A stretch of DNA of 63,798 nucleotides, the filler included, from Nemertoderma westbladi (taxonomy: Eukaryota > Animalia > Xenacoelomorpha): assembly GCA_032718475.1 (NCBI GenBank). It is 4 parts of 4 records of this genome, joined end to end, with 100 filler letters (N's around TTAATTAATTAA, not from the genome) between each part and the next. Parts side by side here need not be neighbours in the genome. Positions count along the whole stretch, not along the records: positions 38,789 to 58,967 come from JAUCBJ010001306.1; 3 more parts are not named here. One strand, 5' to 3'. The notes below the pieces were generated by a model that was not told where the DNA came from, did no database searches, and worked only from the letters and a program-made list of their open reading frames with translations. Each line of letters begins with the position of its first letter. Positions within the stretch are counted from its first letter, which is position 1. A program made the translations under genes and the position numbers. Positions 8,273-56,686 of this stretch are shown here, piece after piece.

Positions 8273-8290
8273 CGTATACCTCTTCTTTGT

Positions 8291-9535: not shown

Positions 9536-10407
9536 GTCTATTGATCAGTCAGTCGGACAGACGGTTAGTAAGAAGGTGGGTGTAAACAAGCCGCCGCGGT
9601 AACATATTCTCCTTTCCCTCAATTGCAGAATTGGTAGGTAACAAAATCCTTTATTGTTTTGGTTAGAAAACCCTGTCTCGGTAACCTGCTCCTTTCCCTC
9701 AATTTGTAGGTAAAAAGTCGTTTATTGTTTTGGTTAGAAATTACAGCCGCTGTAACCTGCTCTTTTCCTTCAATTGGAAGGTAACAACAGCGTTTATTAA
9801 TTCCTACATTCCCATCCACCTTCCCATATTCCTTCCTTCATCGTCTAAGTATAAACTCCATTGTATCAGCTGGCAATGCAATATGGGGCATGTTAATTGT
9901 TTCGTCATATACACACTACACAGTAGGCCTAGAGAGATACCCCTTCCTGCCTTCCCTTTAGTTGTTTAGCGTAACAAACAAACAATAAATATTTTAAATG
10001 TAATGTATTAATAAATATCATTACTTAATTAATAATATTAATTATAATTAATATTATTAACTTTAACTATTAATAATGATAACTATTAACAAGAAAGATT
10101 TACGAAAACACAACTTTCATACCCGCCATCCTTCATCCTATATCGCATTTTTAATATATAATAATATGCCTTTTTGCATTAGATGCATACCGGTATGCCT
10201 GTACTGCAACGTCAAATGATGATACTGATACAGTACATTAAACAGGCAATGTGAAACATGATCCCCTATTCAGCTATTGGCTATTTACCTAACAGACAGT
10301 TAGGTAAATATTATATCTCTTTCTCCTGATTGGTTATAGGATCAGATGCTGTCAGATCAGATCAGATCAGATAAGGACAGACGTTTTATTCTACCTCTGT
10401 AAAACAT

Positions 10408-21495: not shown

Positions 21496-22267
21496 ATTAA
21501 CAATAAACTGGCCAATGCAAAAATGAAACTATAGTATTACCAATTTACCAAGTACAATACCTATACAATTTAACCTGTCTTATACCGGTATCTATTATAT
21601 GCCGGCCTAGGGATGATGCGGTAATTCAAAGGGCCCAAGTCAAAGCAATACTCTACAATCGGGACCTTCAGCTCAGGGCTTATTCCTCCGGTACCACTAG
21701 TGGGTGCCATTGGTTTTCTATATTTAAATACATTATTATTATAAATATGATTTAATTCATAAATGTTGTTGAATGTTTTCTACCTATTTCGGATATGACA
21801 GATCAAATGGACACAATTTAGAAACTTATTATTTTAAGAGAACATTATTTTTCGACCATTGAAATATCCGTTGCATAAACAAAAAATAAACAATAAAAAT
21901 GGCTAGTTAGGCCTAGTAGCCTAGTTGTGCCAATAATGATGTTTTATCAGTTTATTGGAGTTAAAGAGTCTCTCAATTGTGGCATTTTTATAACACATTA
22001 CAAAAATAATAAATTTAATTTCGTCACATTTACAAGTAATATAGTTAGACTGTTCGAATTAAATATGTAAATTTAAGAAATCTATACTGTAGGTCCTATT
22101 CGGAAAGGAAATGTTGAGTTTGTGGAGAATTATCCACTAGTAGTAAATTGAGAAATCAAATGCTGTTTATAGGCCTATCTGCCTATTTAAAAGTAAGGGA
22201 TAGTAGTACATCTTCATAACTGACATCGCGGATTTAATGGACTATTATTTGTATCTAATTGACTTAT

Positions 22268-30265: not shown

Positions 30266-30573
30266 AATCGAATCGTTAGTCAGTTCTTATTATAAGTTTT
30301 CGTTCCGATATAGGCTGATAGGTCGGATATTAACGGTAGGCCTAATCAAAAAATAATAACTAAACTACAAACCAAACCATGAGTCCTTAAAAACACATTA
30401 TATTGATCTTTGAAGAATTTAAATTTCCCGCTTTAATGTAGGGTTGTCAACGACAACGAGCAGCTCAGTTTTTTAACGATCCTGGCGCAACTATACCAAA
30501 ATTGTTATAACAGGTCAGCTTTATTTGGTGCTTGGGGTGGTTTAGTAACTCTAGCAGAGCGTCGGTATTTAAT

Positions 30574-31754: not shown

Positions 31755-34503
31755 GGTCATTTACCATAGTCCACTTTCCAATAAAGCTACAGTCTTCTAA
31801 CCTTGATCTGCCCCCCATATATCAGCATCAGCGATTCCATTGACGTCATTTGTAAACCCCGGTTGCCATGGCAACTGGTTCCAAAACGAGGTTCAAACGC
31901 CGATTTTAAGTAAATATCCGAAAAATATAAAACCATTGATTAATAATTGTTCCCAATTTTGAAAAATCATCTAACATTATAAATACATTATCCCTGAGAC
32001 CCTCTTGATTTCTAGAAGTGGACCAATTTAAATAGACTTGTGGTAGTCCTGTAACCATGGTCACAAGCCACTAAATATATTCTGCCAAATTTAATATAGT
32101 TCCGAACTATCCAAAAAAATTCAATTTTGGATCTAGTGTCTTAGATGTTGCCAAGTCCAGACAATTACTTTCCGACCATTCAAGTTTGTCTCTGTTGCCA
32201 TGGTAACCGATAACATTCGTAATGTGGAAAAATATTGAAAAAAAATATGTTCAGTTTACTTCAACTTTGATCATATGCAAATATCTTACTTCCTCATTAC
32301 ACAGTAGATGTCTATGACCACTAGCGCAGTTAATATAGTTACCATAGCAACGGGTATGTCTCATATTTATGCACTTCCGCTTTCTTATTTTTTAATATTT
32401 TCATATTTTGAAGACAATAATTTTTTTGATATGAAAAATATATATCTGGGGTCTATCATAGCTATTTTTTAATGTAAATAATTACTCATGACCATAGCAA
32501 CGGGAGATTTCCCTCTTATACACTAATTGCTAGGTGGAATTTCTCCAAATTTTGTGAAATATGAACACTGAAGTATATAGAAACATATTATGGACAAAAA
32601 TTTCAAAATTAATTTATGTTAACTTACTATACTTGCATAGCAACATAGGTTTTCCATAGCAACACATAAAGTTTTTCATGGTATTCTAAGCAAAACCAAG
32701 TTTCCTGCATGAGTATGAGATGACCCATTGGTCAATCTTATCGCTGGTACACCATATTCCTGCCTGGTAGGCAGCAGTAGGCAGGCTTTTATGTTGCATC
32801 AGTGCATCCTGGGTTGGAGGTACAGTCTCTAATGTTCTATTCTTTTGGCAAAAGTGGACCTTCCTTAATTCGTTCACATGTTGTAATTCACTGGTCTTTA
32901 AATTACCACCGTGATCCTTTCCAATACTTGACTAATATGGACCTAAGTTTTCAAACGCACTATTGATGTTATAATAGTTGAAGTGCTTGCCTGTGTCAAA
33001 TGCTACCCAAAGATGAACTCTTCGATCCAAATCTGCCAGGTGATGAAACTTCCCGATTAAAAGAACCAGTACATCAGTATCTACAGTTCGAACCAAACAA
33101 TTTGTATGACCATTGGTAATAGCATCCTGTAAATGGATAACAAGCCTGGTGTCAGCTTCCTCATGGTCACAGCTTGGCATTGAATGGGTGGATCCCGAAT
33201 AACAGTTGCTTCACCAGATGTGATGACAATTTCTTTAACTTCGGGAGGGATGCAAAATTCCTCGTAGCTATGCAAAAATCGCTGATGCTAAGGATGAATT
33301 GCCTCCCATATGCAACACTCTAATAAAAAAACTGTTATTTCTGTCAAAAACGCTCCGTTTCTAAGATATGTTCCAGGTTACTATGGTAAATTCGTCGTTG
33401 CTATGTAAAACTTACCGTTGCTATGCAAAACCCGTCGTTGCTATGGAAACCATTATACTGATGCAGGAAACATGTTTTTGCTTAGAATACCATGAAAAAG
33501 TTAATTGTTGCTATGGAAAACTTATGTTGCTATGCAAGTATAGTTAGTAAACATAAATTAATTTTGAAATTTTTGTCCATAATATGTTTCTATTTACTTC
33601 AGTGTTCATATTATACAAAATTTGGAGAAATTCCACCTAGCAATTAGTGTAAAATAGGGAAATCTTCCGTTGCTATGGTCATGAGTAATTATTTACATTT
33701 AAAAAATAGCTATGATAGACCCCAGATATATATTTTTCAAATCAAGAAAATTATTACCTTCTAAATATTATAATAAGAAAAAATAAGAAAGCGGAAGTAC
33801 ATAAATAATGAAACATACCCGTTGCTATGGTACTGTAATTATATTGACTGTGCTACAGGTCATAGACCTCTACTATGTAATGAGGAACTAAGGTATGTGC
33901 ATATGATCTAAGTTGAAGTAAACTGAATATGTTATTATCAATATTTCTTCCACATTCCAAATGTTATCGGTTACCATGGCAACAGAGGCAAACTTGAAAG
34001 GTCGGAAAGTAATTGTCTGGACTTGGCAACATCTAAGACACTAGATCCAAAATTGAATTTTTTTTAGATAGTTCGGAACTATATTAAATTTGGCAGAATA
34101 TATTTAGTGACTTGTGACCATGGTTACAGGACTACCAAAGGTCCATTTAAATTGGTCCACTTCTAGAAATCAACAGGGTCTCAGGGATAATATATTTATA
34201 ATGTTAGATGATTTTTCCAAATGTGTAACAATTATTAATCAATGGTTTTATATTTTTTCGGATATTTACTGAAAATCGGCGTTTGAAACTCATTTTTGAA
34301 ACGGTTGCCATGGCAACTGTTTCAAAAACGAGTTTCAAACGCCGATTTTCACGCGGGTTTTACAAATGACGTCAACGGAATCTCTGCTGCTGATATGTGG
34401 GGGGTAGGCAAGGTGTACTAAATAAGTTATTTAGTACACCTTGGGGGTCGGTCAAGGTTAGAAAACTGTAGCTTTATTGGAAAGCGGACTTTTGTAAATG
34501 ACC
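31755..34503. mobile_element. Internally deleted DNA element with TIRs of about 950 bp and a nuclease-gene remnant
   Basis: 31755-32700 is mirrored by 33475-34503 (GGTCATTTAC.A.AGTCC.CTTTCCAATAAAGCTACAG ends); the core holds broken minus-strand ORFs. Confidence 0.85.
32686..33270 (-). pseudogene. Fragment of a transposon-borne XPG/FEN1-like (PIN-fold) protein
   Basis: CDHEEADTRLVIH...VRTVDTDVLVLL...LWVAF and NELR...F...VPPTQDALMQH...AAYQAGIW, motifs typical of a widespread metazoan TE protein family; frameshifts and deletion present. Confidence 0.6.
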
Positions 34504-36304
34504 TCCTGTTGTCATGATAATATGGGACCGATTCCTTAAAAAATTAAAGGTATGGTATTTATCTACTCCTGTGCCAATTATGGGAAGTTTGTCCAGAACG
34601 TCCACATTAACTTGTTAAGCGACCTAGGTAACTTGTTAATGCTAATCCGAAAAATTACGCAGATTGAAAATTAGGGAAGGGCTATGCCATACGCCGTATG
34701 CCTTGCCTAATTTGTATAACCCAAGGCGTTGGTACAGTATAACCTTTTAGAGTAATAAGTGGTACTGTACCGGTACGAGAGTTCTATTGAGACTAGGAGT
34801 AGCTCAATATCCCGCGTCTAAATAACCCCCCCCCCCCCCCCCCCCCCCTAAATTTGGCCCCATACTACCAATACCACATAACTGTAAATAAACAAGGCCA
34901 ACATGTTCAAACAGAAATGTATCAAAGTACAACAATACATCCATCAGCATATCATCTTATTGGCTGATTCAAAACAATTCATTGGCCTAAAAACTGCTGA
35001 TGATACTGCAAGATGATCCACATTCGTTATCTATTCCTAATGTTTGCAAGACTTAATTACATGCTACTGTACGATTGTCTTATCACACGTATAACAACAC
35101 CATGTCATGGAATTGTGTATTTATCTTGGTACATGGACCCCCCCCCCCCCCCCCCCCCCCCCCTCCAAAAAAATGACATTGCATGGAATTTGAAATATAG
35201 ATAGATTTTCCTAACTCCTGCGTGGGAGAGTTAACATATTTATTTTTGCTCTCGTATTTAGTTCATTTTTCTGTTTTATTCATAAAACGTATAGGGATTC
35301 TTTGGTACTGATGGAAAGCGCTATGGCCATGCAAGGATTCCAAATTTGAATTTCGTCGTAATATAGCTGAGATACGGGCTTTCAAAAGTACCATGGTTTT
35401 GCACCTCCGCGAGACTATTTTACTCTATTTAATAAATACATTATATTCTGGAACATATTGATAGTATGATTAAAGAGGTATTGCATATATGCCTAGTATG
35501 GGATAAACAAAATGTTCCAGAATAATATGTTGTATTTATTAAATAGAATAAATAGCCTCGCGCAGTGCAAAACCTATGCAACTTCTGAACGCTTATATCT
35601 CAGCTATTCTATGACGAAATTTAGATTGTGTTACACATTTGGAATCCTTACATGACCAGCGTTTAGGTATAACTGCTGCACAACTGGTGCAATATCGACA
35701 GAGACACCTTTTTTTAAACGATCGTAGATAAAATTGAGTCCAAAAATTTCATTCCATGTACCAGTACCAGAATAACGACATTGTATTCCTGGACATGGCT
35801 ACGGTACTCTACAGCAGCATCACCACCCCTAACTACGGTGGCTGATTGAGGCCATACTTACTAACTGTATTTCTACGGTAATACCTCCGCCTATATTTTT
35901 CGTTTTTCGAATATACTGTAATTTAGAAACGAAATTGCACCATTATTAGCATAGTCAATGCAAACATTTGGTAAGGCCTACTTTGGTAATTACAGTATTA
36001 TAGGCCATTATTGATACTTTATTGTCTTGGTTTAATCTGGTTAGTTCGTTTTTTTCTGCACGTTATCAATACTGGAAATTAACATATTATCAAGGGGTGA
36101 GGGAAGGAGTGCGACTAATAAGGATATTAATTTGCTAACATTATACTACGCTGAATACCCATAGATACTGCCTCGCCAACTCGCTGAATACCAAAGGGGC
36201 GAAATAATTTCGTATTTCTAGAGAAGGAATTCGGGATGTTACTCCGCGACTCTACAGTTGAAATAAATTATTAATTGTTTTCTAAATGACTGTTCCAACT
36301 TTAT

Positions 36305-37699
36305 ATGTTAAAATATAAATTATGTTTATCTCCATTACTATTGTACAGTCTTTGTAAATTGGAAATGGCGCGGGTCGACGTTCAAGGTTTAACAGAAACT
36401 GCCAGTTGCTCGTGTAAGTCGTCGCAGAGAACGCGCGGTATGTATTACCTGTACCTCATCATTGGATCACTCATCAGCTTATTGATGCTACTTCCATCAA
36501 TCCAGACATCTCTAATAAACATTTCTATCCCCGGCTTCAATAAAGTCTGTAAATACATAGGAGATCAATCGAACTGCCCCCTTATCCTCAGTTATACAGC
36601 CATCTATAGAGTCTTCTTCGCCATGACTGTCTTCTTCTCTTTAATGGCGTTTCTAATGGTCGGAGTGAAATCGAATGAAAATATCCGAGGAAAGGTAAAC
36701 AACGGCTTTTGGGTTTTCAAGCTCATTGCTCTTATAGTAATTAGTGTTGTTGCTTTTTATCTCCCAAACTTCGACGTTTTCGTCAACATTTGGTTTTATT
36801 TCGGTCTCATCGGTGGTTTCTTCTTTATCCTTGTGCAGCTCATTATATTACTCAATGTAGGACACGTCTGGAAAAAGTTGCTCTTTATAAATAACGACCC
36901 AGGTGAATTTGGTCTTGAATATTGCTGTTGTGTTGTATGTTTTTATAGCTCCTCCATCATCATAATGTTTTACGTTATCGCAGTGACGCTATTCGTAAGT
37001 ATTTTAATTTATTACGCTAATGAAACCCATTGCCTCAAAAACAAGATAATTGCTGTACTTAACTTACTTCTATGCATGGTTATCAGTGTTATTTCTGTCC
37101 TGCCGCCATTAAGAAATTATAATCCTCGCGTTAGTATCATACACTCCTCCATTGTATCTCTATATGTAATGTACTTCACATGGTCTGCTTTCTCCAGTGA
37201 ACCTCCCACTGAAGATGGTCTCTACTGCGGACCCATCGACGGCATCATTAGGATCAACAACGATGAGATTGTTGTAATGGTTGTTGGGCTCATTATCACC
37301 TTTATCGCCACCAATGTGTTCGCCCGGGGCACCAAGAAGGATCCCGAGGCCTTTGATTGTTCCTGCTCATGCTTCGAGTGCTGCTGGTGTTGTAGAAGTA
37401 CAGATATAGAAGAGGACAGCGAGGATTGTAGCTATAATTACTCCATTTACCATGGAATTCTTATGTTGGCTAGCCTCTATCTCATGATGACCATCACAGG
37501 ATGGTCCTACCTAAGCTCGAAATCTTCGACTAGCGGTCGCTGTTGGGCTGCTTTTTGGGTGAAATTAGTCTCATCTTGGTGTTGCATTGCTATCTACATG
37601 TGGACGATAATTGCTCCAATGATAAGAAAAGAGAAAACTAAAAGTGATATTAACACAAAGAAGAGACACTGTAATCTATGCTATACCTATGTATTATGA
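36305..37699 (+). CDS. SERINC: Serine incorporator (SERINC/TDE/TMS1 family) multi-pass membrane protein, single-exon CDS; start may be ATG 36365
   Basis: YRVFFAM, VNNGFWVFK, GGFFFILVQLIIL, SIVSLYVMYFTWSAFSSEP, YNYSIYH...LASLYLMMTITGW, WVKLVSSWCCIAIYMWTIIAP. Confidence 0.9.
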   Translation: MLKYKLCLSPLLLYSLCKLEMARVDVQGLTETASCSCKSSQRTRGMYYLYLIIGSLISLLMLLPSIQTSLINISIPGFNKVCKYIGDQSNCPLILSYTAIYRVFFAMTVFFSLMAFLMVGVKSNENIRGKVNNGFWVFKLIALIVISVVAFYLPNFDVFVNIWFYFGLIGGFFFILVQLIILLNVGHVWKKLLFINNDPGEFGLEYCCCVVCFYSSSIIIMFYVIAVTLFVSILIYYANETHCLKNKIIAVLNLLLCMVISVISVLPPLRNYNPRVSIIHSSIVSLYVMYFTWSAFSSEPPTEDGLYCGPIDGIIRINNDEIVVMVVGLIITFIATNVFARGTKKDPEAFDCSCSCFECCWCCRSTDIEEDSEDCSYNYSIYHGILMLASLYLMMTITGWSYLSSKSSTSGRCWAAFWVKLVSSWCCIAIYMWTIIAPMIRKEKTKSDINTKKRHCNLCYTYVL

Positions 37700-39545: not shown

Positions 39546-41350
39546 CAAATAGGCCTAATGGAGTGGCTAAGCGAAAGAAATTGTGACAAATAAAGATGTT
39601 CCAAATAATTTAATTAATTGTTTAATGTGATTCTGTTAGATGTAATTGATTTTAACGTATAAACCACAATAGTTTATCATAGCGCGTACCTTTTTTTTTA
39701 TCAAGGGCGGGATTACAAACATATTAGACAATTTATCTTACTAACCTTCCAATGTTAACCAGCCAAATAAAAAATATAACTGATTAAATGATTAACAAAT
39801 TTAACGTTGCTCTGGAAACTAAATTGGTAACTACTGTATGTAAAAGTATATCGTTCAATCATGGTACAATTGCACTCAAGTTTGTTAACAAAATTTGGGA
39901 AAAATCTCACCAATAATAGTTAGTTTTGTTGCTATGTGTAAAATCCATATTGCCAAGGAAATAAATATGAAATTAAAAAAGTTAATATGATCTGATTTTT
40001 TGGAGCATCGGATTTTAGTCTATATACTGATATACCCACTAGGGTTAATCAGTAAATTAAAAATAATGTTTCGATCAATATGTAGGAAATATCAATCAAT
40101 AAGCGATAGCTTTGATATTTTACAAAAAAATAATTTTTTATTTTTTTTTCATTTCATAATTTGGTTGCCCCTTTTATTTATCTTTCTTGTTGTATCGGAT
40201 CTGTTAGTCTTCCTCGAGGCTTGTCTTATATGTAGGCCTAATTGTAGAGCGAGGATTCCATACATACTACAGTATTTCAGTAGTTACAGCATGACTGAAA
40301 ATATTTTTGGTCATATTTGACCGAAATGGTACTGCGCGGGTTAAACTAAGTACTAGGATGAAAAAAGCTGGAATCCTCAAAAATACAACTATTATCGTTA
40401 TTATTGTAATCCCATAGCCACTAGCAATTTAGTTTTCAGATTGGATAATTAGTTTTTTTTATATTTGATACTATAATCCGGCAGATATTGCATTATACCT
40501 TGCATGGAAGTATATAGTAAATGTTTGAACTGATTCGGGTTGGTAAAATTGTTGTCATCAATGATCTGACTAATGCCCAACTGGCAGCGCCCCCTTGAGG
40601 GTTTTCCTAAAATTGCCAAATTCTAAACCTGATCATGACTTTGCGAAAGCTACGATTTTCAATCCCCAGGGGTTTGTTCCAGAACGTTTTTACTCACTAT
40701 TATTATTCCAATGGGAACAGCCCCGGTTTCAAGTTATAAAGTGTGCTATTTCGTAACGATAATGAAGTTTTGTACAGTAATTCAATGATATACCTTTGCA
40801 TTATAACATAAATCTTAAATTTCTGGTTGTATCTGGTGGCGAACAAGACTTAACAATAACAATCTTTGAAGAATCTGGTGGCGAACAAGACTTATAATCT
40901 ATGAACCTGAACGCGTAATATCTCAGCTGTTTCTCAACGAAATTCAGATAGTGTTACATATTTCGAAACCTTGTAACGCCAGCTTTCTAATGATATGCTA
41001 AATTATTCACTAATGTGAAGAATGGCCACGATACGGAGGGTGCGATTTCGCAAAAGACACTTTTTTAAAACGCTTATAAAAAAATTTTAAAGGCAACATC
41101 GAAAATTCCGGCTTCATGGGGTCAACCACGGTGAGTTGAACTTGTGTTTCAAATTTCAAACAATATGATAAAGATTTGTAGAAAAATCTGGAGGGGGTTG
41201 GGGGGTCCGTATCATCAGAAAATGACACTATATTACGAGTCATGGTGTATACTCCCATGCAAGGTTCAGCACGGCATATATCTGCCGGACTACTAAGACT
41301 ACCAGAAGAATAGCATTATTACTGAGTTATTGAAGATATCTATTTCAATA

Positions 41351-44300
41351 ATGGGAACTGTTTTCAACATAGCTGATAGCCTAGTCGTCTTGGTTAAGCA
41401 TATTGAAAATGCAACAACCCCTCCTAATGTTCAAGAAGCGATGGATGAATTAATTTCAACTGTTGAATCAATTTCGGCGTATGATGAAACAAGCTTTGAA
41501 GGCTGGAAAATTATTCATAAATTAGACGAAATTGGCATTTCCTTATGGAATGCTGTTGTGAACAAAAAGTCCCTAACTCCGCAACACATAACGAACATGC
41601 AAGTAGCAAAATTGAGACATCTTGCAGTAGATTTATGCCAAAGGCAGAAAAATGACACACCACTGAATTTAAAAAGAATGTTGGTGATGCGGATGAAGAC
41701 GGTTACGTCTTGGCTTGATGCTGAGACACCATCAATGTGTCGCCTTTTATTTCCAGATATTGCGAACACTGTTGAGAATCTTAGGAAGTCAGCACAGCTG
41801 CCGAATACTGATAGACAAGCTCAGCATAACTCACAGCAGCAATTTCACAGAGATTTATCAAAGTTGAGATGTTTACAAGCGGAGGTAGCAGTTGCGGAAA
41901 ACGATTACAATACCGCTGTTATCTTGATAGAAAAGGCAAAATCAGTTGTTGGAGATCTCCTTCCACATGATGCATCAAGCCTGGCACAGTTGTGCTACCA
42001 GCTAGCTTTGACTTGCTTTAAGAGCGGTGCTTTCCAGCAGTGCATTACATTACTCAATGACAGCTATGATGCGGGAAAAGGCCATTTGGCTAAAGAGTTT
42101 CAAGCCCGTAGTTTAAGGTTAATAACATATGCATATCTTCAATGGGACTCTATTGCTTACAATTCAGTCGCTCTCAGTAAGATTCAGGATTCGATCGCAG
42201 AGGATCCTCACCCTGCTGGTCTCCTATTGCTGCTCAGAATCCGTTTAGAGGGAACTAGTGTTGCTGGAGAAATAGTACAAGAAGCCCTGGATTCTTGTTT
42301 ATGTCATACTACATTTAGCGTCGATGATGCATTATCTGTAATTAACCAACTTGCGCAACATAACAGAACTGATTTGCTAGAAAGCTGCCTGGAAATTTGT
42401 AATGGAAAGTTCCCTAATGAAATAAAGTTTATTCTAATGAGAGTGAAATTGCTCATAGAAGCAGATAAGGTTGTCACTGCATATCAGATCCTTACAAGCA
42501 CAATAGAAAACATTGTCAATGGAAATTCCATAATCGATAATATTACCAAGAACCAGTTGCATTCTATTATATGGGACACTGCAGGTAAACACTTTACAGA
42601 GAGTTTATATGACGAAGCATCATCTTGGTATGATCTATCATATACCCTTTATGAAGTTTCCAAATGTGCCACCGATCTCAGTGATTATGAAAAACTTATT
42701 CGCAACAAAGTTGTGTGTCTCATAGCTTTGGGTCAATTTAACAAAGCGGTTGATTGTCTTTCTAAAAGTGAATCCACGGATTCCCACACAAAATATCTTG
42801 CGTTTAAAGTAGCTGTTCTCCAAGGAGATGACACTAAGGCAGTTGTTTACTTGGAAGATCTAAGCAAAATGGATGATAGTGATAGTTTAGTATCTCTTGC
42901 ATGTCAGCTAGCCATAGAGAATTCCAGTAAATCTGTATCAACAACAGCGCTGTCCTATTTGAGCAAGAACTCAAAAAACATCAATCTTATTCTAACATCT
43001 CTTCGTTGCCTCATACATTACCAATTGCAAACTGAATTACCAGAGCCAACAAAGATATTAGAATATCTAGAAGCTGCAGCTCCTGTAATTAATGAATGTA
43101 CCGACCCCGCTGAAATAGCTTGGTTTGTACGAATGTCCTGGAATATTGGCATTGACTTTTCATCGAACATACCAATTATGAAGGAAATTTTCAAAATATG
43201 CTCGATTTTCTGCAAGGCCCAGGGGGTTGATGGAACAGCAAGGAGTAACAGCTGTTTGCTGATGGTTGCTGCAGCATGTCTAGAATTATCTCGCAAAGAA
43301 AGTGACGATTCCAAGAAGTTATTGTACGCGGAAACGCTGTCAGTTCTTAGCACCTTAAGCGATGCGGATGTTAGCCGCATGGATTCGGCTTCATCTAGGA
43401 TGTTTGTCCTCTATAGATGGGAATGTTACTTGGGACTGAATGATGCAAACTCTTGCAAAGAGTTATTATCCACACACAGTTTAGACATTAAATCGCTACA
43501 GATTATGGCGAATGGCGCTAAGGATTGTGATTGGTCTAGAGAATTAGCATTAGATTGTCTCAATAAAGTGTTGTCAATAATCGACTTTGGCAGTGATGAT
43601 GTAGATCTGATCAGCGCCACTGTCCACGAACTAGTTATTTTATCTTTGGATGAGATGATAACTGGTCGAGTTCAAGAAAGTGCTTTAGAGAACTTCCAGA
43701 AGGCAATAGTAGCCATAGATAATTGCCAAGCTAATTATCCCCAAGTTGAAATCCTCTGGTTGGCTACGGCCGCCTGGAACACTGGTACCCGTCTCCATCT
43801 AAATGGCCAATCAGGAGATGAATGGTGTCGCCTGGCCTTGGCAACTATCAATAGAATGGAGGATTGCGATGTGAAATCGGGTTATTCCAGTAAGATGATA
43901 GAAATCCCAGCGAAAAACACAATCCCGATCCCGAAAAACCGGGATCCCAGCGAAAAATACAACCCCGATCCCGAAAAACCGGGATCCCAGCAAAAAATAC
44001 AATCCCGATCACGATCCAAAAAAACCGGAATCCCAGCGAAAAACACAATCCCGATCCCGAAAAACCGGGATCCCAGCGAAAAATACAACCCCGATCCCGA
44101 AAAACCGGGATCCCAGCAAAAAATACAATCCCGATCACGATCCAAAAAAACCGGAATCCCAGCGAAAAACACAATCCCGATCCCGAAAAACCGGGATCCC
44201 AGCAAAAAATACAATCCCGATCACGATCCAAAAAAACCGGAATCCCAGCGAAAAACACAATCCCGATCCCGAAAAACCGGGATCCCAGCGAAAAATACAA

Positions 44301-44488
44301 CCCCGATCCCGAAAAACCGGGATCCCAGCAAAAAATACAATCCCGATCACGATCCAAAAAAACCGGAATCCCAGCGAAAAACACAATCCCGATCCCGATC
44401 CCGAAAAACCGGGATCTCCAGCGAAAAATGCAACCCGGTCCGATCCCGACTTTTTTGGACCGGGATCCCAAAGTATATATATAGTTAA
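41351..44488 (+). CDS. TEX11: TEX11/SPO22/ZIP4-like meiotic TPR protein, single-exon CDS; last ~195 codons are repeat-derived
   Basis: All-helical protein of about 850 aa with GISLWNAVV, QARSLRLI..AYL.WD, LHSIIWD, A.SWYDLS, AWFVRMSWNIG and YPQVEILWLATAAWNTG...EWCRLAL, characteristic of this family. First ATG at 41351. Confidence 0.78.
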   Translation: MGTVFNIADSLVVLVKHIENATTPPNVQEAMDELISTVESISAYDETSFEGWKIIHKLDEIGISLWNAVVNKKSLTPQHITNMQVAKLRHLAVDLCQRQKNDTPLNLKRMLVMRMKTVTSWLDAETPSMCRLLFPDIANTVENLRKSAQLPNTDRQAQHNSQQQFHRDLSKLRCLQAEVAVAENDYNTAVILIEKAKSVVGDLLPHDASSLAQLCYQLALTCFKSGAFQQCITLLNDSYDAGKGHLAKEFQARSLRLITYAYLQWDSIAYNSVALSKIQDSIAEDPHPAGLLLLLRIRLEGTSVAGEIVQEALDSCLCHTTFSVDDALSVINQLAQHNRTDLLESCLEICNGKFPNEIKFILMRVKLLIEADKVVTAYQILTSTIENIVNGNSIIDNITKNQLHSIIWDTAGKHFTESLYDEASSWYDLSYTLYEVSKCATDLSDYEKLIRNKVVCLIALGQFNKAVDCLSKSESTDSHTKYLAFKVAVLQGDDTKAVVYLEDLSKMDDSDSLVSLACQLAIENSSKSVSTTALSYLSKNSKNINLILTSLRCLIHYQLQTELPEPTKILEYLEAAAPVINECTDPAEIAWFVRMSWNIGIDFSSNIPIMKEIFKICSIFCKAQGVDGTARSNSCLLMVAAACLELSRKESDDSKKLLYAETLSVLSTLSDADVSRMDSASSRMFVLYRWECYLGLNDANSCKELLSTHSLDIKSLQIMANGAKDCDWSRELALDCLNKVLSIIDFGSDDVDLISATVHELVILSLDEMITGRVQESALENFQKAIVAIDNCQANYPQVEILWLATAAWNTGTRLHLNGQSGDEWCRLALATINRMEDCDVKSGYSSKMIEIPAKNTIPIPKNRDPSEKYNPDPEKPGSQQKIQSRSRSKKTGIPAKNTIPIPKNRDPSEKYNPDPEKPGSQQKIQSRSRSKKTGIPAKNTIPIPKNRDPSKKYNPDHDPKKPESQRKTQSRSRKTGIPAKNTTPIPKNRDPSKKYNPDHDPKKPESQRKTQSRSRSRKTGISSEKCNPVRSRLFWTGIPKYIYS

Positions 44489-44755
44489 GTAAATTTGTTG
44501 AATATCTGATAAATAGTTCCAGCAGAACGGAAATTCTGATTATATAGAATTTTTATGTCAGTAAACCATCCAGTAATCAATTGCAAAATAATTTTAATAT
44601 AACTTTATCTTACTAATATTTCAGAAGTGTAAGATAAAGTGAGTAAAACCCACCACATAGGCCTATACTAATTACCTTAAGGAAATTTAATACAAAATTG
44701 CAATCCCGATCCCGAAAAACGGGATCCCGAGAGTGATTGATAATCCCGATCCCGC
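43901..44755. repeat. Repeat-rich insert: GATCCCGAAAAACCGGGATCCCAG minisatellite (43901-44470, higher-order period about 120 bp) plus related motifs at 44703-44755
   Basis: Direct tandem repeats; the same ATCCCGATCCCG motif recurs at the far end. Confidence 0.85.
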
Positions 44756-44822
44756 TTAAACACAATACACAGTCAAAAATAAATTAAGCAACGTAGCAAC
44801 GCAAAAGTAGCTCAGTACACTC

Positions 44823-44866
44823 ACCCGGCTGATGATAACCAGAAGTTTGAAACCTAGGTACCGGGT
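44823..44866 (+). ncRNA. Type-I hammerhead ribozyme, copy 1
   Basis: ACCCGG-CTGATGA-TAAC(CAGAA)GTTT-GAA-ACCTAGGT-A-CCGGGT; predicted cleavage after GUA at 44860. Confidence 0.8.
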
Positions 44867-45192
44867 TCGAGCCCCAATAGGGCCGGTTGATATTTTTCGC
44901 TATGGAGAGCATTATCATATTGTCCTATTTACATTATATATTTAATTCACCGCGTCACTCACCCCACAACAATTCACTTGTTATTATTAATTAACAGCCT
45001 GGGCCAGGCATACGGGGTTACTAGTGGTTTCTACACCACTGTATAATAGTTATTCTTTGAGGCATGGTTGCCATTTCTGGCAGAGCACGGGAATAACGAA
45101 GCTTGTACTTTCCTTTGAGTGATTAGTTGGCCTAAATATGATCTCCCACTCCATAGCGAAATATTCATCCGGTCTGGTAGCTCAGTACACTC

Positions 45193-45236
45193 ACCCGGCT
45201 GATGATAACCAGAAGTTTGAAACCTAGGTACCGGGT
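45193..45236 (+). ncRNA. Type-I hammerhead ribozyme, copy 2
   Basis: Identical motif; predicted cleavage after 45230. Confidence 0.8.
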
Positions 45237-45560
45237 TCGAGCCCCAATAGGGCCGGTTGATATTTTTCGCTATGGAGAGCATTATCATATTGTCTTATTT
45301 ACATTGTATATTTAATTCACCGCGTCACTCACCCCACAACAATTCACTTATTATTATTAATTAACAGCCTGGGCCAGGCATACGGGGTTACAGTGGTTTC
45401 TACAACACTGTATAATAGTTATTCTTTGAGGCATGGTTGCCATTTCTGGCAGAGCACGGGAATAACGAACTTGTACTTTCCTTTGAGTGATTAGTTGGCC
45501 TAAATATGATCTCCCACTCCATAGCGAAATATTCATCCGGTCTGGTAGCTCAGTACACTC

Positions 45561-45604
45561 ACCCGGCTGATGATAACCAGAAGTTTGAAACCTAGGTACC
45601 GGGT
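45561..45604 (+). ncRNA. Type-I hammerhead ribozyme, copy 3
   Basis: Identical motif; predicted cleavage after 45598. Confidence 0.8.
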
Positions 45605-45928
45605 TCGAGCCCCAATAGGGCCGGTTGATATTTTTCGCTATGGAGAGCATTATCATATTGTCTTATTTACATTGTATATTTAATTCACCGCGTCACTCAC
45701 CCCACAACAATTCACTTATTATTATTAATTAACAGCCTGGGCCAGGCATACGGGGTTACAGTGGTTTCTACAACACTGTATAATAGTTATTCTTTGAGGC
45801 ATGGTTGCCATTTCTGGCAGAGCACGGGAATAACGAACTTGTACTTTCCTTTGAGTGATTAGTTGGCCTAAATATGATCTCCCACTCCATAGCGAAATAT
45901 TCATCCGGTCTGGTAGCTCAGTACACTC

Positions 45929-45972
45929 ACCCGGCTGATGATAACCAGAAGTTTGAAACCTAGGTACCGGGT
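45929..45972 (+). ncRNA. Type-I hammerhead ribozyme, copy 4
   Basis: Identical motif; predicted cleavage after 45966. Confidence 0.8.
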
Positions 45973-46084
45973 TCGAGCCCCAATAGGGCCGGTTGATATT
46001 TTTCGCTATGGAGAGCATTATCATATTGTCTTATTTACATTGTATATTAAATTAAGCAACGCTTATGTAGTGATTACAACAAAT

Positions 46085-48139: not shown

Positions 48140-48278
48140 ATAGACATGTCAAGGATGAAAGCCAGGCTTGGGTAAGGCTGCATCATTTATAAAGCTGTGC
48201 CCAAACAGTGCTGCCCCATACAGGGATCGAACCAGGGCCTCCTGATTGGATGCAAAGGAATTTCATTACTACACGGTT
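48140..48278 (-). mobile_element. tRNA-derived SINE (intronic)
   Basis: Minus strand GTGTAGTAATG...GGTTCGATCCC...GGCTTTCATCCTT core. Confidence 0.55.
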
Positions 48279-49300: not shown

Positions 49301-49553
49301 GTGATGTTACTTACTTACCGGTACCGGTTAGTTAGGCCTATCTACTGAGATAAATATTAGTTTCAGTTTCATTGTAAAGTAATCTAACAATATTATATCA
49401 ACACTTTTTCGAGATAAGAAAGTGGACACAAATAAGAAGGAAACATAGTTTGTTGTTTTGGGTAAAAACGACAGTGAAAAAATAAACCAAATTACTAATA
49501 CACAATAATAAAATATAGAAATAGTACTTAATAATTTTAAATAAATATTTCAG

Positions 49554-52500
49554 GTCAAAATAAAAATCTTTGAAGCTCGACACCTTCCGAGCGGCGACAC
49601 GGATCCGGTAGTGCGAATGAAGGTCGGGTCGACGATAAAGAAATCCTCTATACGATGGGACACGAGCAAACCGATATGGAACGAGTCGTATTTCTTCAAC
49701 CTGCGAGGACCGCCGCGGGAACTGTTCCAGGAGACCATCGAGATCGAGTTGTACAACGCGCGCAAACTCCGAGCGGACGCGTTCATCGGGGCCTATCAGT
49801 TGGACCTCGGGACGGTGTACGAGTCGGCGAGACACGCGGTCCTCCGCCGGTGGTTGCTGCTGAGCGACCCAGGGGACCCGATGGGAGGCCGACAGAGCTA
49901 CATAAAGGTGAGCTGCGTGGTCCTAGCGCCGGGGGATAGATCGCCAACGGACGCGGAAGCGAAAGGTTACGAAGACGACATAGAAGAAAACCTGTTGAGT
50001 TTACCTGGAACTCAACTGCAGCCCGCGACCTTCTGGTTGCGAGTTTATAAAGGGGAAGATCTTCCACAGATGGAGTCGCAACCGTTGAATGTAATGAAAA
50101 AGGCAGTGGGAGTTTATCCGAGGGAATCCTCGGATTTAATCGACGGGTTTGTGAGTTTCCAGTTCGCAGGGAAAGAGGTGACTACGAGACGGATAAAAGG
50201 GACTTACAATCCGGTGTGGAACTCGGAACTGCGACTCGGGGTCCGCTTCCCATCGATGTGCGATCGCATTACCGTAAGGGTGTTCGATCACAACGCTGTA
50301 ACCAGGAACTCAGCAATAGCGACTGGACACATCTACATGTCCGAGATATCAGTGAAGGGAACACGGCATGGATTCGCGCCCACATACGGACCAGCTTTTC
50401 TCCCTTTGTACGGAAATATTCGGGATTTTTCTATATTTACCTACAAGTTGGATTCCTTGAATGAGGGAACAGGGACTGGTTGCTGTTACCGGGGCAGATT
50501 GTTTCTAGAATTCGGGTGTATCCTGGGAAAATTGCCCGCAAAAGACGCCCAAGTACAATATCTAGGGGGAACAAACCCGGATTTAGGTGCAGTTGAGATG
50601 TTCATGAAAAAGAAACAATTTTGCGCGTACATCACGCTCCTAGAAGCGTCCATGTTCCAAAAACATGACGACATAGTAGAATTTGAAGCCTCTATAGGTA
50701 ACCACGGTAACCGAGATGAACCTAGATACACACTGCAATCATCACTTAGCAACCCGATGCAACCAGTGTACGACGGCACCAAATATTATTACATTCCTTG
50801 GGGGGCAGATAAACCGACGCTTAGGATATATTGTGATATGGAGGACATCACATTTCGTCTGCAGGCCCTCAATCTTATTATATACATCGTAGACGCCTTC
50901 GATAAGCGAATGTCGTCAATAAAAGATGCGATAAGAAATGGCGAACCTGACGAATTAATCTCGTCGGAATTAACGAAACTATCGGAAGAACTCAACATCG
51001 ACTGCACACTCGCACTTCCTGAGTTGAATGCAAAATTACACTCAGTTACTCAACTCGACCTCCAGCTAAGCAAACACAGGATCTATGCAAAGAACGAAAC
51101 CGGTAGGCGAGCCTCCAAGTTGTGCGACACTCCCAAGGATATTCTCACAATGATCTCCGAGTTGGAGGCGATGGCAAATGAGTTGCGCCATCTGGCGTCC
51201 GAGCCGCAGAACAGTGTGCCAGACCTGATTATTTGGATGATATACGGCGGGGTTCGTACGGCTTACTACCGCGTCCCCGTTTACGACATCCTGTTTACTA
51301 ACGGCTCCTACGATGGAATCCATTGTGGAAAGAGTCAAACAGTCTTCCTAAATAATAGATGCTTGCCGGGGAAGTCGACCGACGACATTCCTTGCATGTT
51401 GCGATTTACAGGATGGTTTGGTCCTCAGCAGCTCGAAGCTGAGTGGATTAAGGGTATGGAAGGATTTACGATCGCCATGTATGCCGAGGTGTTTGAGTAT
51501 CGAACGCCATTAGGGCGTAAATTATATGATGCATCGGGGATGGTTAGGTGCGAAAAACCATTGTTTAAGCTCCCCATCGGTTGGGAGTGGAACGATGATG
51601 ATTGGGTGCCGGGCCCAGCGCCCAGTAGCAACACCCTCCATCAAAGAGCGGAATACGAAGTCTGTGAGGCGTACGAGTATCAGGAACGGCCCGCTAAATC
51701 TCAGAGATGGACAGATAAATGGGACACCGAGAACACCGTTTGGATCGACAAGGATAATGCTATAGAGGGGCCAAAGGATGATAAGGTGTGCCCTCCTGGT
51801 CGGGTATGGATGGGGGATTGGGAATCCGAGATAGCGGATGGTGTGGACTCAGAGGGGTGGGAATATTGTATAGACCCAAGTATAGGAGGGTGGACTGGCA
51901 CAGTTCAATCTTACCATATTAGTCGCCGAAAACGCTGGGTTAGAAAACACATGCAAGACACACCCTTACCTGAGCCTGAAGTAGAGCATACAGAAGGCTG
52001 GGAATATGCAAAACCATGGGGTAATCGCTACAAACACGATGCACAATCCATGCTAGATTTCATATCCCGTCGCCACTGGAAACGAAAAATATCTAAAAAT
52101 GAAACTAAAGGTGTTAAGGGTGTTAATCTATTTATATTTGACATGTCTGGAGTTTTTGATCCCGAACAAAGTAATAGGGTGAATAGGTCGAATAGGAAGC
52201 AGGTGGCTCCCAACATTTATGTCGAGTACAATACAGCTAATTCGTATCAACTCAGAAGTTATATCTACATGGCAAGATCACTTCTAGCAGCGGATTCAGA
52301 TAGCTTCTCCGATCCCTATGTGCAGATCATGTTCATGAACAGATCAGTACGCAGTCAAATAATTCGAAAAACCGTCTGTCCAATATGGGACCAGTGCTTG
52401 ATTATATCAGACATTGTTTTACATGACAGTATAACAAATCTTATTAGGAATCCACCATCGCTCGTCCTAGAGATATATGACCACGATGATTATGGCAAAG

Positions 52501-54977
52501 ATGACTTCCTAGGGAGAGCCTGTATTATACCAATAATTCGCATAAAGGCAGATGGATATGCAGCACCTGTTCTAGAATGGTTCACACTGAACAAGATAAC
52601 TGGTAACTGCCGTGGCGATGTTTTGGCCTGTTTCGAGTTGTTTCTGATGACGGGGGATCTCCCATTTTTGCCTCCTGAAAAAGGGATTGATATAAGTGGG
52701 AGTGATGGAATTGCAAAATCTCTCTATTCCATACCTAGAGGTATTAAACCTATAACTACCAGCATGTGTTTGATGATCTTGTGCTGGGGTTTAAGGAACC
52801 TATCTTCTTACCAAGGACTGTCTGTAACCCAACCAACAGTAGAATTTGTTTGTGCTGGGAAGATTGTGAAATCAGAAATGCTCAACAATGTAGCAAGAAA
52901 TCCTAACTTTCACAACCCTGTCTTAACAATGGAAGTAGACTTACCTGTACGCCATGTATATCTACCACCGATTCACATTAAAGTTAGAGATAACAGATCC
53001 TTTGGAAGGAAACCTATAGTGGGTGTCTACACAATAAATTCTTTAGCTGAATACAAGGAAAATGTAAACAAAACACAAAAGAAGACAATTGAAGATGAAC
53101 CTTTCAAAAAACTGTCTGATCCAAAACCTGTAAAGTCTAAGCAAGCCGATGTGAATGAAGATTTCGATTGGTGGAGTAAATACTACGCATCGATAGGAGA
53201 TGCCTCAAAGGCATCTTTGTATGTTGAAAAGGGTTATGAACTTCTGAAAGTATATGATAAGGAACTTGAATTAAGTGAAAATTACGAACGTTTTCAAGAC
53301 TTTGTAAAAACCTTTGATTTGGTGAGAGGCAGAACTGATGATAAAGTTGAAACAGTTGGCCAACTGAAGGCCTCCTTTGCATTGTACAATAACATCAATG
53401 AGATAAAGCCTAGACACCATTGGCCAGGGGGAGCTAATGTCACCATACGAATCTACATACTGAGAGGTTTGGATCTGACCCCGATGGATGGTAGTGGCAC
53501 GTCGGATCCTTACATAAAGATTAGCCTCGGTACTAAAGTCATCGATGATGTCAACAACTACATCCCCAACAGCATCAACCCGATATTCGGAAAAAGCTAC
53601 GAAATTCAGCAACAAATGCCATTGTTTAAAGATTTAAAAATAACCGTGATGGACCACGATTTCGTGAGTGGCGACGATGTCATTGGTGAGACAGTGATCG
53701 ACATTGAGGACAGATATATCTCAAAATTCCGGGCTACTTGCGGAATAAATGCCCAGTATTACTTGGCCGGTGTCAACTGCTGGAGGGATTCACAGAAACC
53801 CAGCGACATTCTAGAATGGTACTGTCGTCATAACGACTTAGATAAACCAATGTTCGAAGGTAATAGACAGGTTCGCGTGGGTGGAAAGGTTTACTTGTTG
53901 GATAAACTCGAGTCCGGACCACCACACCCCGACTGGGGTCCCTCCCAGGAGCGTCTGGCTCTTCACGTACTACGTCAACTCCCATTGGTTCGCGAGCACG
54001 TGGAGCAAAGGACTCTGTACAACAGCGAGCTTCAACCGGGGATCTCGCAAGGGAAACTCGAGATGTGGGTGGACATATTCTCTATGAGTAGTGGTAGACC
54101 ACCACCCCCGGTCAACGTGAAAGCGCGAGAGGCGAAGCACTACGAGTTGCGAGTGGTGATATGGGACGCGAAAGACGTTGTATTGGAAGAGGAGGGGACA
54201 TTGACGGGACAGAAAATGAGTGACATTTATGTGAAAGGTTGGTTGGACGGTAGTGACGACATACAAGCAACAGATGTTCATTATCGTTCGTTGTCTGGCG
54301 AGGGAAACTTTAACTGGCGGTTTGTCTTTGATTTGCACTACATTGATCAGGAGCATATAATGGTAATTAAATCGAAGAGGCATTTTTGGAGTTGGGATGG
54401 GATAGAAGAGAAATTACCCCCGAGGTTTTTCGTGCAAATTTGGGACAACGACTTGATATCGCAGGATGACTATATCGGGCAAATTATATTCAATCTAGAT
54501 AAAATGTACGAACCAACGAAATCGTCTGGGAGCTGCTCATTGTCCGTGTTTAAGGACAAGAAGGGGAAGAGACGTGACAGTCTGATAAAGAGAAGAAGGA
54601 TGAGAGGTTGGTGGCCGACAACGGAAGAAAAGGGAAAGAAGTTGACTGGGAAGTTAGACATGGAGTTTGAGATTATTAGCAAAGAGGATGCAAAGCACAA
54701 GCCAGTAGGTCGGGGGAGATCTGATCCGAACATGTACCCGCATCTTGAGGTGCCGAATAGGCCAGGTAGCTCGTTCCTATGGTATAAGGCGCCATGGCGG
54801 GCACTCAAATACATAATTTGGCAGAATTATAAGTGGAAATTTCTAATAGCTTTAATATTCTTTATAGTACTGCACTTTTTCTATAGTTACCTATATTCAC
54901 TTCCAGTCTACGCTGCCAAGGCAACTGTCGAGGAATTAATTAGTGGGTCAAAAAGTAAACCAGAAAATGGAGTTTAA
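49554..54977 (+). CDS. Type-I (DysF-containing, dysferlin/myoferlin-like) ferlin, 5.4-kb exon
   Basis: TTTCAG acceptor; multiple C2 domains (SDPYVQI, SDPYIKI, SDIYVKGW, TDVHYRSLSGEGNFNWRF), FerI (DDIEENLL), DysF (GWEW, GWEY, RRKRW, RRHW), FDWWSKYYAS, C-terminal TM helix. Confidence 0.93.
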   Translation, partial: VKIKIFEARHLPSGDTDPVVRMKVGSTIKKSSIRWDTSKPIWNESYFFNLRGPPRELFQETIEIELYNARKLRADAFIGAYQLDLGTVYESARHAVLRRWLLLSDPGDPMGGRQSYIKVSCVVLAPGDRSPTDAEAKGYEDDIEENLLSLPGTQLQPATFWLRVYKGEDLPQMESQPLNVMKKAVGVYPRESSDLIDGFVSFQFAGKEVTTRRIKGTYNPVWNSELRLGVRFPSMCDRITVRVFDHNAVTRNSAIATGHIYMSEISVKGTRHGFAPTYGPAFLPLYGNIRDFSIFTYKLDSLNEGTGTGCCYRGRLFLEFGCILGKLPAKDAQVQYLGGTNPDLGAVEMFMKKKQFCAYITLLEASMFQKHDDIVEFEASIGNHGNRDEPRYTLQSSLSNPMQPVYDGTKYYYIPWGADKPTLRIYCDMEDITFRLQALNLIIYIVDAFDKRMSSIKDAIRNGEPDELISSELTKLSEELNIDCTLALPELNAKLHSVTQLDLQLSKHRIYAKNETGRRASKLCDTPKDILTMISELEAMANELRHLASEPQNSVPDLIIWMIYGGVRTAYYRVPVYDILFTNGSYDGIHCGKSQTVFLNNRCLPGKSTDDIPCMLRFTGWFGPQQLEAEWIKGMEGFTIAMYAEVFEYRTPLGRKLYDASGMVRCEKPLFKLPIGWEWNDDDWVPGPAPSSNTLHQRAEYEVCEAYEYQERPAKSQRWTDKWDTENTVWIDKDNAIEGPKDDKVCPPGRVWMGDWESEIADGVDSEGWEYCIDPSIGGWTGTVQSYHISRRKRWVRKHMQDTPLPEPEVEHTEGWEYAKPWGNRYKHDAQSMLDFISRRHWKRKISKNETKGVKGVNLFIFDMSGVFDPEQSNRVNRSNRKQVAPNIYVEYNTANSYQLRSYIYMARSLLAADSDSFSDPYVQIMFMNRSVRSQIIRKTVCPIWDQCLIISDIVLHDSITNLIRNPPSLVLEIYDHDDYGKDDFLGRACIIPIIRIKADGYAAPVLEWFTLNKITGNCRGDVLACFELFLMTGDLPFLPPEKGIDISGSDGIAKSLYSIPRGIKPITTSMCLMILCWGLRNLSSYQGLSVTQPTVEFVCAGKIVKSEMLNNVARNPNFHNPVLTMEVDLPVRHVYLPPIHIKVRDNRSFGRKPIVGVYTINSLAEYKENVNKTQKKTIEDEPFKKLSDPKPVKSKQADVNEDFDWWSKYYASIGDASKASLYVEKGYELLKVYDKELELSENYERFQDFVKTFDLVRGRTDDKVETVGQLKASFALYNNINEIKPRHHWPGGANVTIRIYILRGLDLTPMDGSGTSDPYIKISLGTKVIDDVNNYIPNSINPIFGKSYEIQQQMPLFKDLKITVMDHDFVSGDDVIGETVIDIEDRYISKFRATCGINAQYYLAGVNCWRDSQKPSDILEWYCRHNDLDKPMFEGNRQVRVGGKVYLLDKLESGPPHPDWGPSQERLALHVLRQLPLVREHVEQRTLYNSELQPGISQGKLEMWVDIFSMSSGRPPPPVNVKAREAKHYELRVVIWDAKDVVLEEEGTLTGQKMSDIYVKGWLDGSDDIQATDVHYRSLSGEGNFNWRFVFDLHYIDQEHIMVIKSKRHFWSWDGIEEKLPPRFFVQIWDNDLISQDDYIGQIIFNLDKMYEPTKSSGSCSLSVFKDKKGKRRDSLIKRRRMRGWWPTTEEKGKKLTGKLDMEFEIISKEDAKHKPVGRGRSDPNMYPHLEVPNRPGSSFLWYKAPWRALKYIIWQNYKWKFLIALIFFIVLHFFYSYLYSLPVYAAKATVEELISGSKSKPENGV

Positions 54978-56451: not shown

Positions 56452-56686
56452 GCAAGCAAACAGTCGGCCGAAGCCGGAGGCGACCCGAAGGCTTCGTAGC
56501 TCTTTCGATAGCTGTTACCCGAGGGTAGGGGTGGGCGCTACTCCTATTCCTAGTTTGCTCACAGTAATTTAACTGGTACTCATTTTATCAACCCCAGGAT
56601 GAAATGCTGAGTGGATCGTGGCAGGGCTCGAACCCACAATCAATACATTGTAGGACCGGCGCTCAAGTAACTGAGCTACCCCGCCT
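56452..56686 (-). mobile_element. Apparently complete tRNA-derived SINE
   Basis: Minus strand GGCGGGGTAGCTCAGT...GGTTCGAGCCC, core CAGCATTTCATCC...GATAAAATGAGTACCAG, GC-rich 3' hairpin and (GCTT)n tail. Confidence 0.75.

Follow-up and report, generated by a model that had tools for sequence, protein, structure and literature searches.

A predicted hammerhead ribozyme nested in a tRNA-like frame in a retrozyme-type repeat of Nemertoderma westbladi

We describe a tandem repeat of the xenacoelomorph Nemertoderma westbladi (assembly GCA_032718475.1, record JAUCBJ010001306.1) that is probably of the non-LTR retrozyme type, with a hammerhead ribozyme lying inside a tRNA-like frame, likely in place of the anticodon arm that a former tRNA or SINE head had there, and with a likely internal Pol III promoter. 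We hold this composite reading with moderate confidence, on the evidence of motifs, predicted folds and family variants. The repeat was found in a stretch of 63,798 nucleotides (hereafter the window), which joins four parts of four records of this genome with filler between them. A first-pass annotation of the window had suggested a possible SINE-retrozyme hybrid, and this remains the best description of the repeat.

Organization and insertion site of the array

The repeat occupies 44807..46048 on the plus strand, in 3.4 units of 368-370 bp with about 99% identity. Successive predicted cleavage sites are 370, 368 and 368 nt apart, with a GC content of 0.42-0.43. The array starts at the equivalent of tRNA position 7, and its end lies at an AT-rich site some 20 nt past the last hairpin; it is enclosed by a target-site duplication (TSD), the left copy of which is separated from it by 13 additional bases (44794-44806; Table 1). 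Such near-identical tandem units within one TSD fit rolling-circle copying.

Non-LTR retrozymes are described as having units of 150-450 bp, a GC content below 50% and a TSD longer than 4 bp (PMC7229834). The present unit is non-coding, with 368 bp repeated 3.4 times at a GC content of 0.42, and its TSD of 14 bp comes without an LTR structure. The type I hammerhead, expected in at least two consecutive units, is found in all four, at a score below the Rfam gathering score, and genomic copies are many. The marks of a classical SINE are absent: the locus is a tandem array with no A-rich or simple-repeat tail at its end, and neither an A tail nor a LINE-derived end was seen in the 368-bp repeat. 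The Sm-alpha arrangement, in which the hammerhead lies downstream of a complete tRNA-like head, is not found either, the hammerhead being located between the boxes. As far as these criteria can be tested on the sequence, the array is a non-LTR retrozyme of a large family, SINE-like by the ancestry of its promoter.

Among the eight ORFs scanned of the 95 in the window are members of the importin-like HEAT repeat, peptidase M1, Serinc, SPO22/ZIP4 and ferlin families, a gene content that points to a eukaryote and probably to an animal. Several appear to be single unbroken ORFs of up to 1,810 aa, which is unusual in an animal (importin-like, 18292-21528; peptidase M1, 27653-30286; Serinc, 36290-37699; ferlin, 49545-54977). 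The SPO22/ZIP4 (TEX11-like) ORF (41297-44488, plus strand) stays open into a palindromic tandem repeat of 40/46 bp (43903-44446), which encodes its last ~190 codons, and a related repeat (44694-44754) lies immediately left of the retrozyme insertion. The window also contains an apparently intact Gypsy-type LTR retrotransposon (5213-9249, minus strand) with gag- and pol-like ORFs and identical 219-bp direct repeats (4856-5074 and 9319-9537), a second reverse-transcriptase ORF, and a large inverted-repeat element (31862-34317), the ~800-bp arms of which are 88-93% complementary and flank what is left of a short transposase-like ORF.

Table 1. Features of the repeat and of a separate tRNA-derived head, in window coordinates
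Feature	Position	Strand	Remarks
TSD, left copy, 14 bp	44780..44793	+	14-mer present twice in the window
Outer hairpin, 5' arm (8-bp and 13-bp helices)	45135..45161	+	predicted fold; upstream of predicted Pol III start
Acceptor-stem relic, 5' strand (tRNA positions -2 to 7)	45169..45177	+	1:72 register
A box	45178..45188	+	9/11 fit to TRGYnnARBGG; final GG absent
Type I hammerhead (motif)	45193..45236	+	stem I 6 bp; core CUGAUGA 45199-45205; GAAA 45219-45222
Predicted 368-nt monomer RNA	45231..45598	+	between two predicted cleavage sites; B box at 5' end, A box near 3' end
B box	45234..45244	+	11/11 fit to GGTTCRAnYCY; overlaps stem I 3' strand
Acceptor-stem relic, 3' strand (tRNA positions 66-74)	45248..45256	+	1:72 register
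T5, Pol III terminator-like	45263..45267	+	8 nt past tRNA position 73
Outer hairpin, 3' arm	45265..45291	+	predicted fold
TSD, right copy, 14 bp	46048..46061	+	same 14-mer
SINE-like tRNA-derived head, outside the array	56612..56685	-	same A-box 9-mer and B-box 11-mer, 44-nt spacing; complete D arm

The hammerhead ribozyme

The window contains four occurrences of the hammerhead core pattern, one in each unit, where 0.02 would be expected. Stem II consists of a U.U and 3 bp, stem III of 2 bp with a palindromic loop, and the cut is predicted after A45230, its triplet GUA falling on tRNA positions 46-48. Rfam gave a weak HH9 match only (19.7 bits, E 0.082, gathering score 52) and none at the gathering score; a whole-window Rfam search by E-value returned unrelated weak matches only. 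Among family members, none of the 13 core positions varies at 3% or more in runs X1 and X3, and both ribozyme-helix variants among those listed keep or repair a pair, the others being at free position 7 and in loop II.

The same U.U and 2-bp stem III are reported for the axolotl HHR_Amex2, the monomer of which is 22% cut in an hour and the dimer much better (PMC7229834), and a palindromic stem III with dimer cleavage is general among animal hammerheads (PMC4209133). A double hammerhead across two units of the present repeat is predicted to be 9.1 kcal/mol better than two single ones; the active fold still lies 15 kcal/mol above the ensemble in the dimer, and 5-9 kcal/mol above it in the monomer, in an energy model that leaves tertiary contacts outside. 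U1.7 (45237) is unpaired in the hammerhead, and the last base of loop II is an A. These are the two bases of a described Hoogsteen contact (PMC11875169), and by analogy this contact may form here. A bulge had been assigned to the loop I-loop II contact; the likely partner is instead U1.7 in the B-box strand and not the 5' bulge. Two viral contigs (L125 and L126) contain a motif resembling a hammerhead, which shares the palindromic stem III and has a 6-bp stem II and a weak stem I, without a tRNA frame.

A tRNA-like frame around the ribozyme

The first-pass annotation had placed an A-box-like and a B-box sequence around the ribozyme, with a T5 run after them. All are in place (TAGCTCAGT at 45178, GGTTCGAGCCC at 45234, TTTTT at 45263), as is the further string AGTACACTC at 45184. 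The boxes are tRNA-derived; against a published consensus (PMC10137851) the B box fits at 11 of 11 positions and the A box at 9 of 11, and T5 is the sole run of at least four T in the unit. The ribozyme was said to sit where an anticodon arm would be, with which both the coordinates and a tRNA numbering anchored on the boxes (T8 = 45178, T54 = 45236) agree. The claimed helix between CCGGTCT (45169) and GGGCCGG (45250) is also present, and what had been overlooked is that it is an acceptor stem in exact 1:72 register, with six of seven pairs, the best of 17 shifts, of which three others reach five. The T stem keeps three of its five pairs. Its 5' strand is the 3' strand of stem I, so the T-arm and ribozyme folds are mutually exclusive, and the GCTC of the A box is able to extend stem I. 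The spacer between the boxes is 45 bp, compared with 32-43 in human tRNA genes and 52 in 7SL (PMC10137851). From position 16 to the start of the core there are 12 nt, where the best-matching tRNA has 15, which puts the core near, not exactly at, the anticodon loop.

When the flanks were shuffled 400,000 times with the hammerhead held fixed, the A box arose 3,991 times, the B box 57 times, both once, and both with the acceptor stem never. The product estimate for all three is 2e-8; because the motifs were chosen post hoc and the B box is partly, perhaps, constrained by the ribozyme, the true figure is less extreme. A tRNA profile was built from 120 viral loci in which both boxes of the repeat occur, each with an ARAGORN tRNA call; they comprise 70 distinct sequences. 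When scoring is confined to the 23 positions that were not part of the box search, the repeat reaches 0.9 bits, the null mean being -21.7 (P 0.002; 0.005 when the repeat's own letters are shuffled, 0.01 without positions 44-50, seven that are ribozyme-constrained). This is far under the tRNA median of 18, as for a decayed relic. The best single tRNA match agrees at 38 of 46 letters, and NGGTC stands at positions 44-48, the last three of which the cleavage triplet occupies, in 49 of the 70 viral tRNAs. The isotype is unassignable, six amino acids being represented among the top 12 matches. ARAGORN at default settings called no tRNA in the window (the 72 calls at a lowered threshold are noise), and Rfam none at the repeat. 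The comparisons of sequence indicate that the boxes are not due to chance and derive from a tRNA. The acceptor register, the triplet at 46-48 and a longer D arm in related contigs together suggest a head of tRNA or SINE origin in which the anticodon arm gave way to the ribozyme.

Could ribozyme constraints alone have produced the boxes, stem I, the U1.7 contact and the core being tRNA-like anyway? The Sm-alpha loop I strand is similar to the B-box core, U1.7 lies within the B box, and real tRNA genes match the core pattern, 85 of the 120 metagenome matches listed overlapping an ARAGORN tRNA call. The CUGAYGA motif is itself anticodon-loop-like (10.1101/2022.01.19.477025). Such constraints account for neither the A box nor the last two bases (CC) of the B box, nor for the acceptor register, the position of T5 or the longer D arm of relatives, and we consider a coincidence most improbable.

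Folding of the repeat RNA

The two outer helices claimed earlier, of 8 bp (45135-42/45284-91) and 13 bp (45149-61/45265-77), are exact reverse complements. The 157-nt stretch 45135-45291, chosen for its pairing, folds at -57.9 kcal/mol (z -5.3, 0/200 shuffles as good). Pair probabilities in these two helices are 0.54-1.0, with at least 0.9 for 18 of the 21 pairs, and those of CCGG/CCGG are 0.99-1.0. The "long viroid-like rod" of the first-pass annotation holds for this 157-nt arm only: the circular 368-nt monomer is branched and 57% paired (z -1.9 against 60 shuffles; -3.4 for the minus strand), and we therefore see one long hairpin arm and reject a viroid-like rod RNA.

The strings of the proposed GCTC/GAGC pairing are present, but its probability is about 0 in the free ensemble and it appears only when the hammerhead is forced. 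Hammerhead stems I-III, too, are all but missing from this ensemble (probability about 0), in which the core of the ribozyme is paired to the A-box strand instead. To impose the hammerhead helices costs 8.2 kcal/mol in the 157-nt context, the structure drawn in the annotation then being the best fold, and 5.4-8.7 kcal/mol over nine sequence contexts.

Covariation did not bear out the rod. In variant tables that are unlinked, nine of the ten outer-helix family variants each break a pair alone and one keeps it; T45154C (53% and 35%) occurs without a listed partner. Truncated copies without one arm could explain these pair-breaking variants. Both GCTC/GAGC variants, likewise unlinked, break the pair, one of them retaining the B-box consensus.

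Family members and relatives

One unit was compared, at 80% identity, with the contigs of three DNA runs that come from three studies of organism A; the best of these runs may be the window's own sample. Matching contigs numbered 1,913, 1,087 and 137, which is not a copy number, and their summed depth peaks at 45212-45290. At 45293, two bases beyond the hairpin, 33 contigs in X1 and 32 in X3 exit the repeat into AT-rich DNA, which suggests a preferred 3' end and many 5'-truncated copies. At 45187, 19 contigs in X1 and 14 in X3 join the repeat from a flank of other sequence, which has an A box and a D arm extended by 9 nt. The consensus of this flank (agreement about 0.5), the nine additional bases of which end D-stem-like, resembles the SINE head at 56678; this loose-end consensus, unlinked to the 3' variants, would give five of seven acceptor pairs.

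Forty of 44 variants were listed, 27 of these within 45135-45291, all of them unlinked. Conservation of the boxes falls short of significance: none of 20 box positions varies at 3% or more in X1 and X3, and the comparison with 15 of 124 positions elsewhere gives a Fisher P of 0.09. Three of five acceptor variants keep or improve a pair and two have a plausible partner, as unlinked variants. G45172A (15-18% in X1 and X3, 0 in X4) matches C45253T (15-19%), and C45253G (16-27%) would pair with the relatives' pyrimidine at position 2, both again unlinked.

These observations bear on a rather unlikely, still serious, alternative, in which the tRNA frame is the fossil of a SINE head that carried a hammerhead. 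Pol II read-through would then be the sole present source of circles, and the boxes would be kept for their second role as strands of the ribozyme and of helices. The modest P value, an A box without GG, a D arm 9 nt shorter in the window's subfamily, the few T-stem pairs left and the block that T5 sets to Pol III multimers are in keeping with such a fossil, and newt satellite 2 is said to be transcribed by Pol II. A dead frame accounts less well for a full B box, the sole listed variant of which, G45239A, retains the consensus yet breaks GCTC/GAGC, for an A box kept in relatives with diverged flanks, and for a unit whose sole T run lies where a tRNA terminator belongs. Moreover, 4.5SH RNA is functional without the A-box GG (PMC10137851).

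The SINE-like head at 56612-56685, with a D arm that is without the usual GG, possibly represents the donor family of the retrozyme boxes, judging by its motifs. Five B-box matches lie outside the array where 0.7 would be expected, which suggests that tRNA-derived SINEs abound in this genome; apart from that in the SINE-like head, four are in decayed tRNA-like heads at 4151, 47688, 48223-48233 (minus strand) and 57938. Segments 45080-45100 and 45325-45397 of the repeat also occur in contigs with other flanks, including some from organism B, and may thus be common to a second repeat family. A putatively RNA run of organism B (X5) had two contigs on the unit.

No relatives outside organism A were found in viral, prokaryote and metagenome pattern searches or by blastn of the repeat against phages. 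The pattern of hammerhead core plus B box was absent from viral contigs, and other viral pattern searches gave seven and five loci, none with a tRNA frame. The one match in a prokaryote genome was rejected for having no hammerhead helices, as were the metagenome matches, at least 120, since stem I and stem II occurred together in none of the 120 listed; such tRNA loci are false positives for hammerhead pattern searches. Many of these loci (L001-L120) are intron-bearing tRNA genes, mostly tRNA-Phe (52 of the 120 listed have an intron), in which the anticodon loop, intron ends and variable loop spell the hammerhead core. They show how close tRNA and hammerhead sequences are.

A proposed replication cycle

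The published retrozyme cycle consists of cleavage, ligation by RtcB (80%, versus 3% self-ligation) and copying of the circle by a Penelope or LINE enzyme. For the present repeat we propose that Pol III would start near 45167-45171 and that most transcripts would end at T5. When TTTT is extended by a further T, termination in mammalian cells reaches near 100% (PMC8466645). T5 would thus give a transcript of ~95-100 nt that is without the 5' arm of the outer rod and ends before the common 3' end, able to cut itself into ~60 and 35 nt. The first-pass annotation had overlooked that T5 would end the Pol III transcript before rod closure and before the next unit. Unless the host is leakier, T5 makes Pol III a poor source of multimers, and circles need leakage or outside transcription.

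Two units would be spanned by a minority of read-through RNAs or by read-through transcripts from outside, in which the palindromic stem III and the U.U-weakened stem II would favour double-hammerhead cutting and release the 368-nt monomer. Its ends could be held by the acceptor relic and the outer hairpin while tRNA ligase (RtcB) closes the circle, and the alternative fold would keep the ribozyme mostly off in the circle. A Penelope-type reverse transcriptase might then start just 3' of the hairpin base, prime at AT-rich DNA and run round the circle, yielding 5'-truncated solo copies and short arrays such as 44807..46048. A Penelope enzyme is described as nicking AT-rich DNA and starting within its template (PMC11167929); no Penelope element was present among the eight long ORFs scanned, of 95, in the window. 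Passage over the ligated junction would restore the A-ribozyme-B cassette within ~125 nt. It had been suggested that cleavage parts A from B and that only a tandem or circular form restores their order. This is true for cDNA of a cleaved linear monomer, but all four DNA copies have A then B; as the promoter acts as DNA, the claim is limited to that cDNA.

The repeat might instead spread as linear, uncleaved SINE-like RNA, with the ribozyme idle or merely trimming, no circle, and arrays made by template jumping or unequal crossover. An array that begins near the Pol III start, the common 3' end at 45293 with the coverage peak just 5' of it, and the disfavoured active fold would suit this account, and an Anolis Penelope inserted in vitro without need for hammerhead cleavage (PMC11167929). 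We consider it distinctly unlikely, given an invariant core with helix-keeping variants, a T5-terminated transcript that would not include 45293, tandem units so nearly identical within one TSD, and the circles shown for similar repeats of coral, mussel and axolotl (PMC7229834).

Within the retrozyme cycle proposed above, a stronger version is conceivable, which we find rather doubtful. A tRNA-derived Pol III gene would have turned ribozyme in place, with the core at the anticodon arm, the variable loop as cleavage site and stem I supplied by the T arm. A single stretch of 95 bases would then act as promoter in the DNA, as self-cleaving RNA and as a look-alike of a cut tRNA for tRNA ligase, and T5 read-through would set the number of circles. 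If true, the repeat would be a retrozyme that drives its own transcription, and an example from nature of a hammerhead that arose on a tRNA scaffold.

How animal retrozymes come to be transcribed at a high level could be tested by two point mutations in a family that would carry a Pol III promoter of its own. The nesting also provides a natural test of whether hammerheads borrow tRNA ligase through likeness to an anticodon arm, and shows that tRNA and hammerhead are only a few changes apart. Should the boxes be dead, the repeat is a retrozyme of odd ancestry.

Comparison with known systems

Like the present repeat, the metazoan non-LTR retrozymes of coral, mussel and axolotl are tandem non-coding units with one type I hammerhead each (PMC7229834; 10.64898/2026.07.22.740005), and axolotl HHR_Amex2 has the U.U at the base of stem II and the 2-bp stem III, with a tetraloop (PMC7229834). 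Their main texts, as far as available, mention no Pol III promoter or tRNA-derived part, whereas the ribozyme here lies within a tRNA frame (PMC7229834; 10.64898/2026.07.22.740005). For most animal retrozyme circles, predictions give a freely folding ribozyme; in the 368-nt circle it is predicted to be blocked.

Penelope-like pseudo-LTRs share with the repeat a type I hammerhead, a palindromic stem III, tandem and 5'-truncated copies and AT-rich targets (PMC4209133, PMC8557442, PMC11167929). Unlike Penelope-like elements, the repeat is without an ORF, and would depend on a helper enzyme. The tRNA-derived SINEs and Helenus are also non-autonomous retroelements with tRNA-derived type 2 promoter boxes (PMC10886601, PMC10137851); in the parts available no ribozyme is described for them, while the repeat is tandem and, by its motif, self-cleaving. 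For avsunviroid hammerheads, the CUGAYGA U-turn has been proposed to mimic the anticodon loop and recruit tRNA ligase (10.1101/2022.01.19.477025). That case is one of mimicry without tRNA ancestry; the core of the repeat is flanked by tRNA-derived acceptor, D and T sequences.

A search of the open literature brought up no hammerhead enclosed by an A and a B box. The nearest parallels are Schistosoma Sm-alpha and Sj-alpha, tRNA-related tandem repeats with a type I hammerhead that are apparently transcribed by Pol III (PMC6765202, PMC2770079). The argument that cleavage misplaces the promoter in the monomer, so that tandems are needed, has already been published for Sm-alpha (PMC6765202). Its hammerhead was rightly said to lie downstream, the order being described as promoter, then hammerhead (PMC6765202). 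Unlike in Sm-alpha, the predicted cut of the repeat falls between A and B, and the ribozyme overlaps the variable loop and T arm, with T5 following. Repeats that combine a promoter with a hammerhead are thus known from Schistosoma Sm-alpha, and what is new here, subject to a possible prior description, is the nesting of the hammerhead in the tRNA frame.
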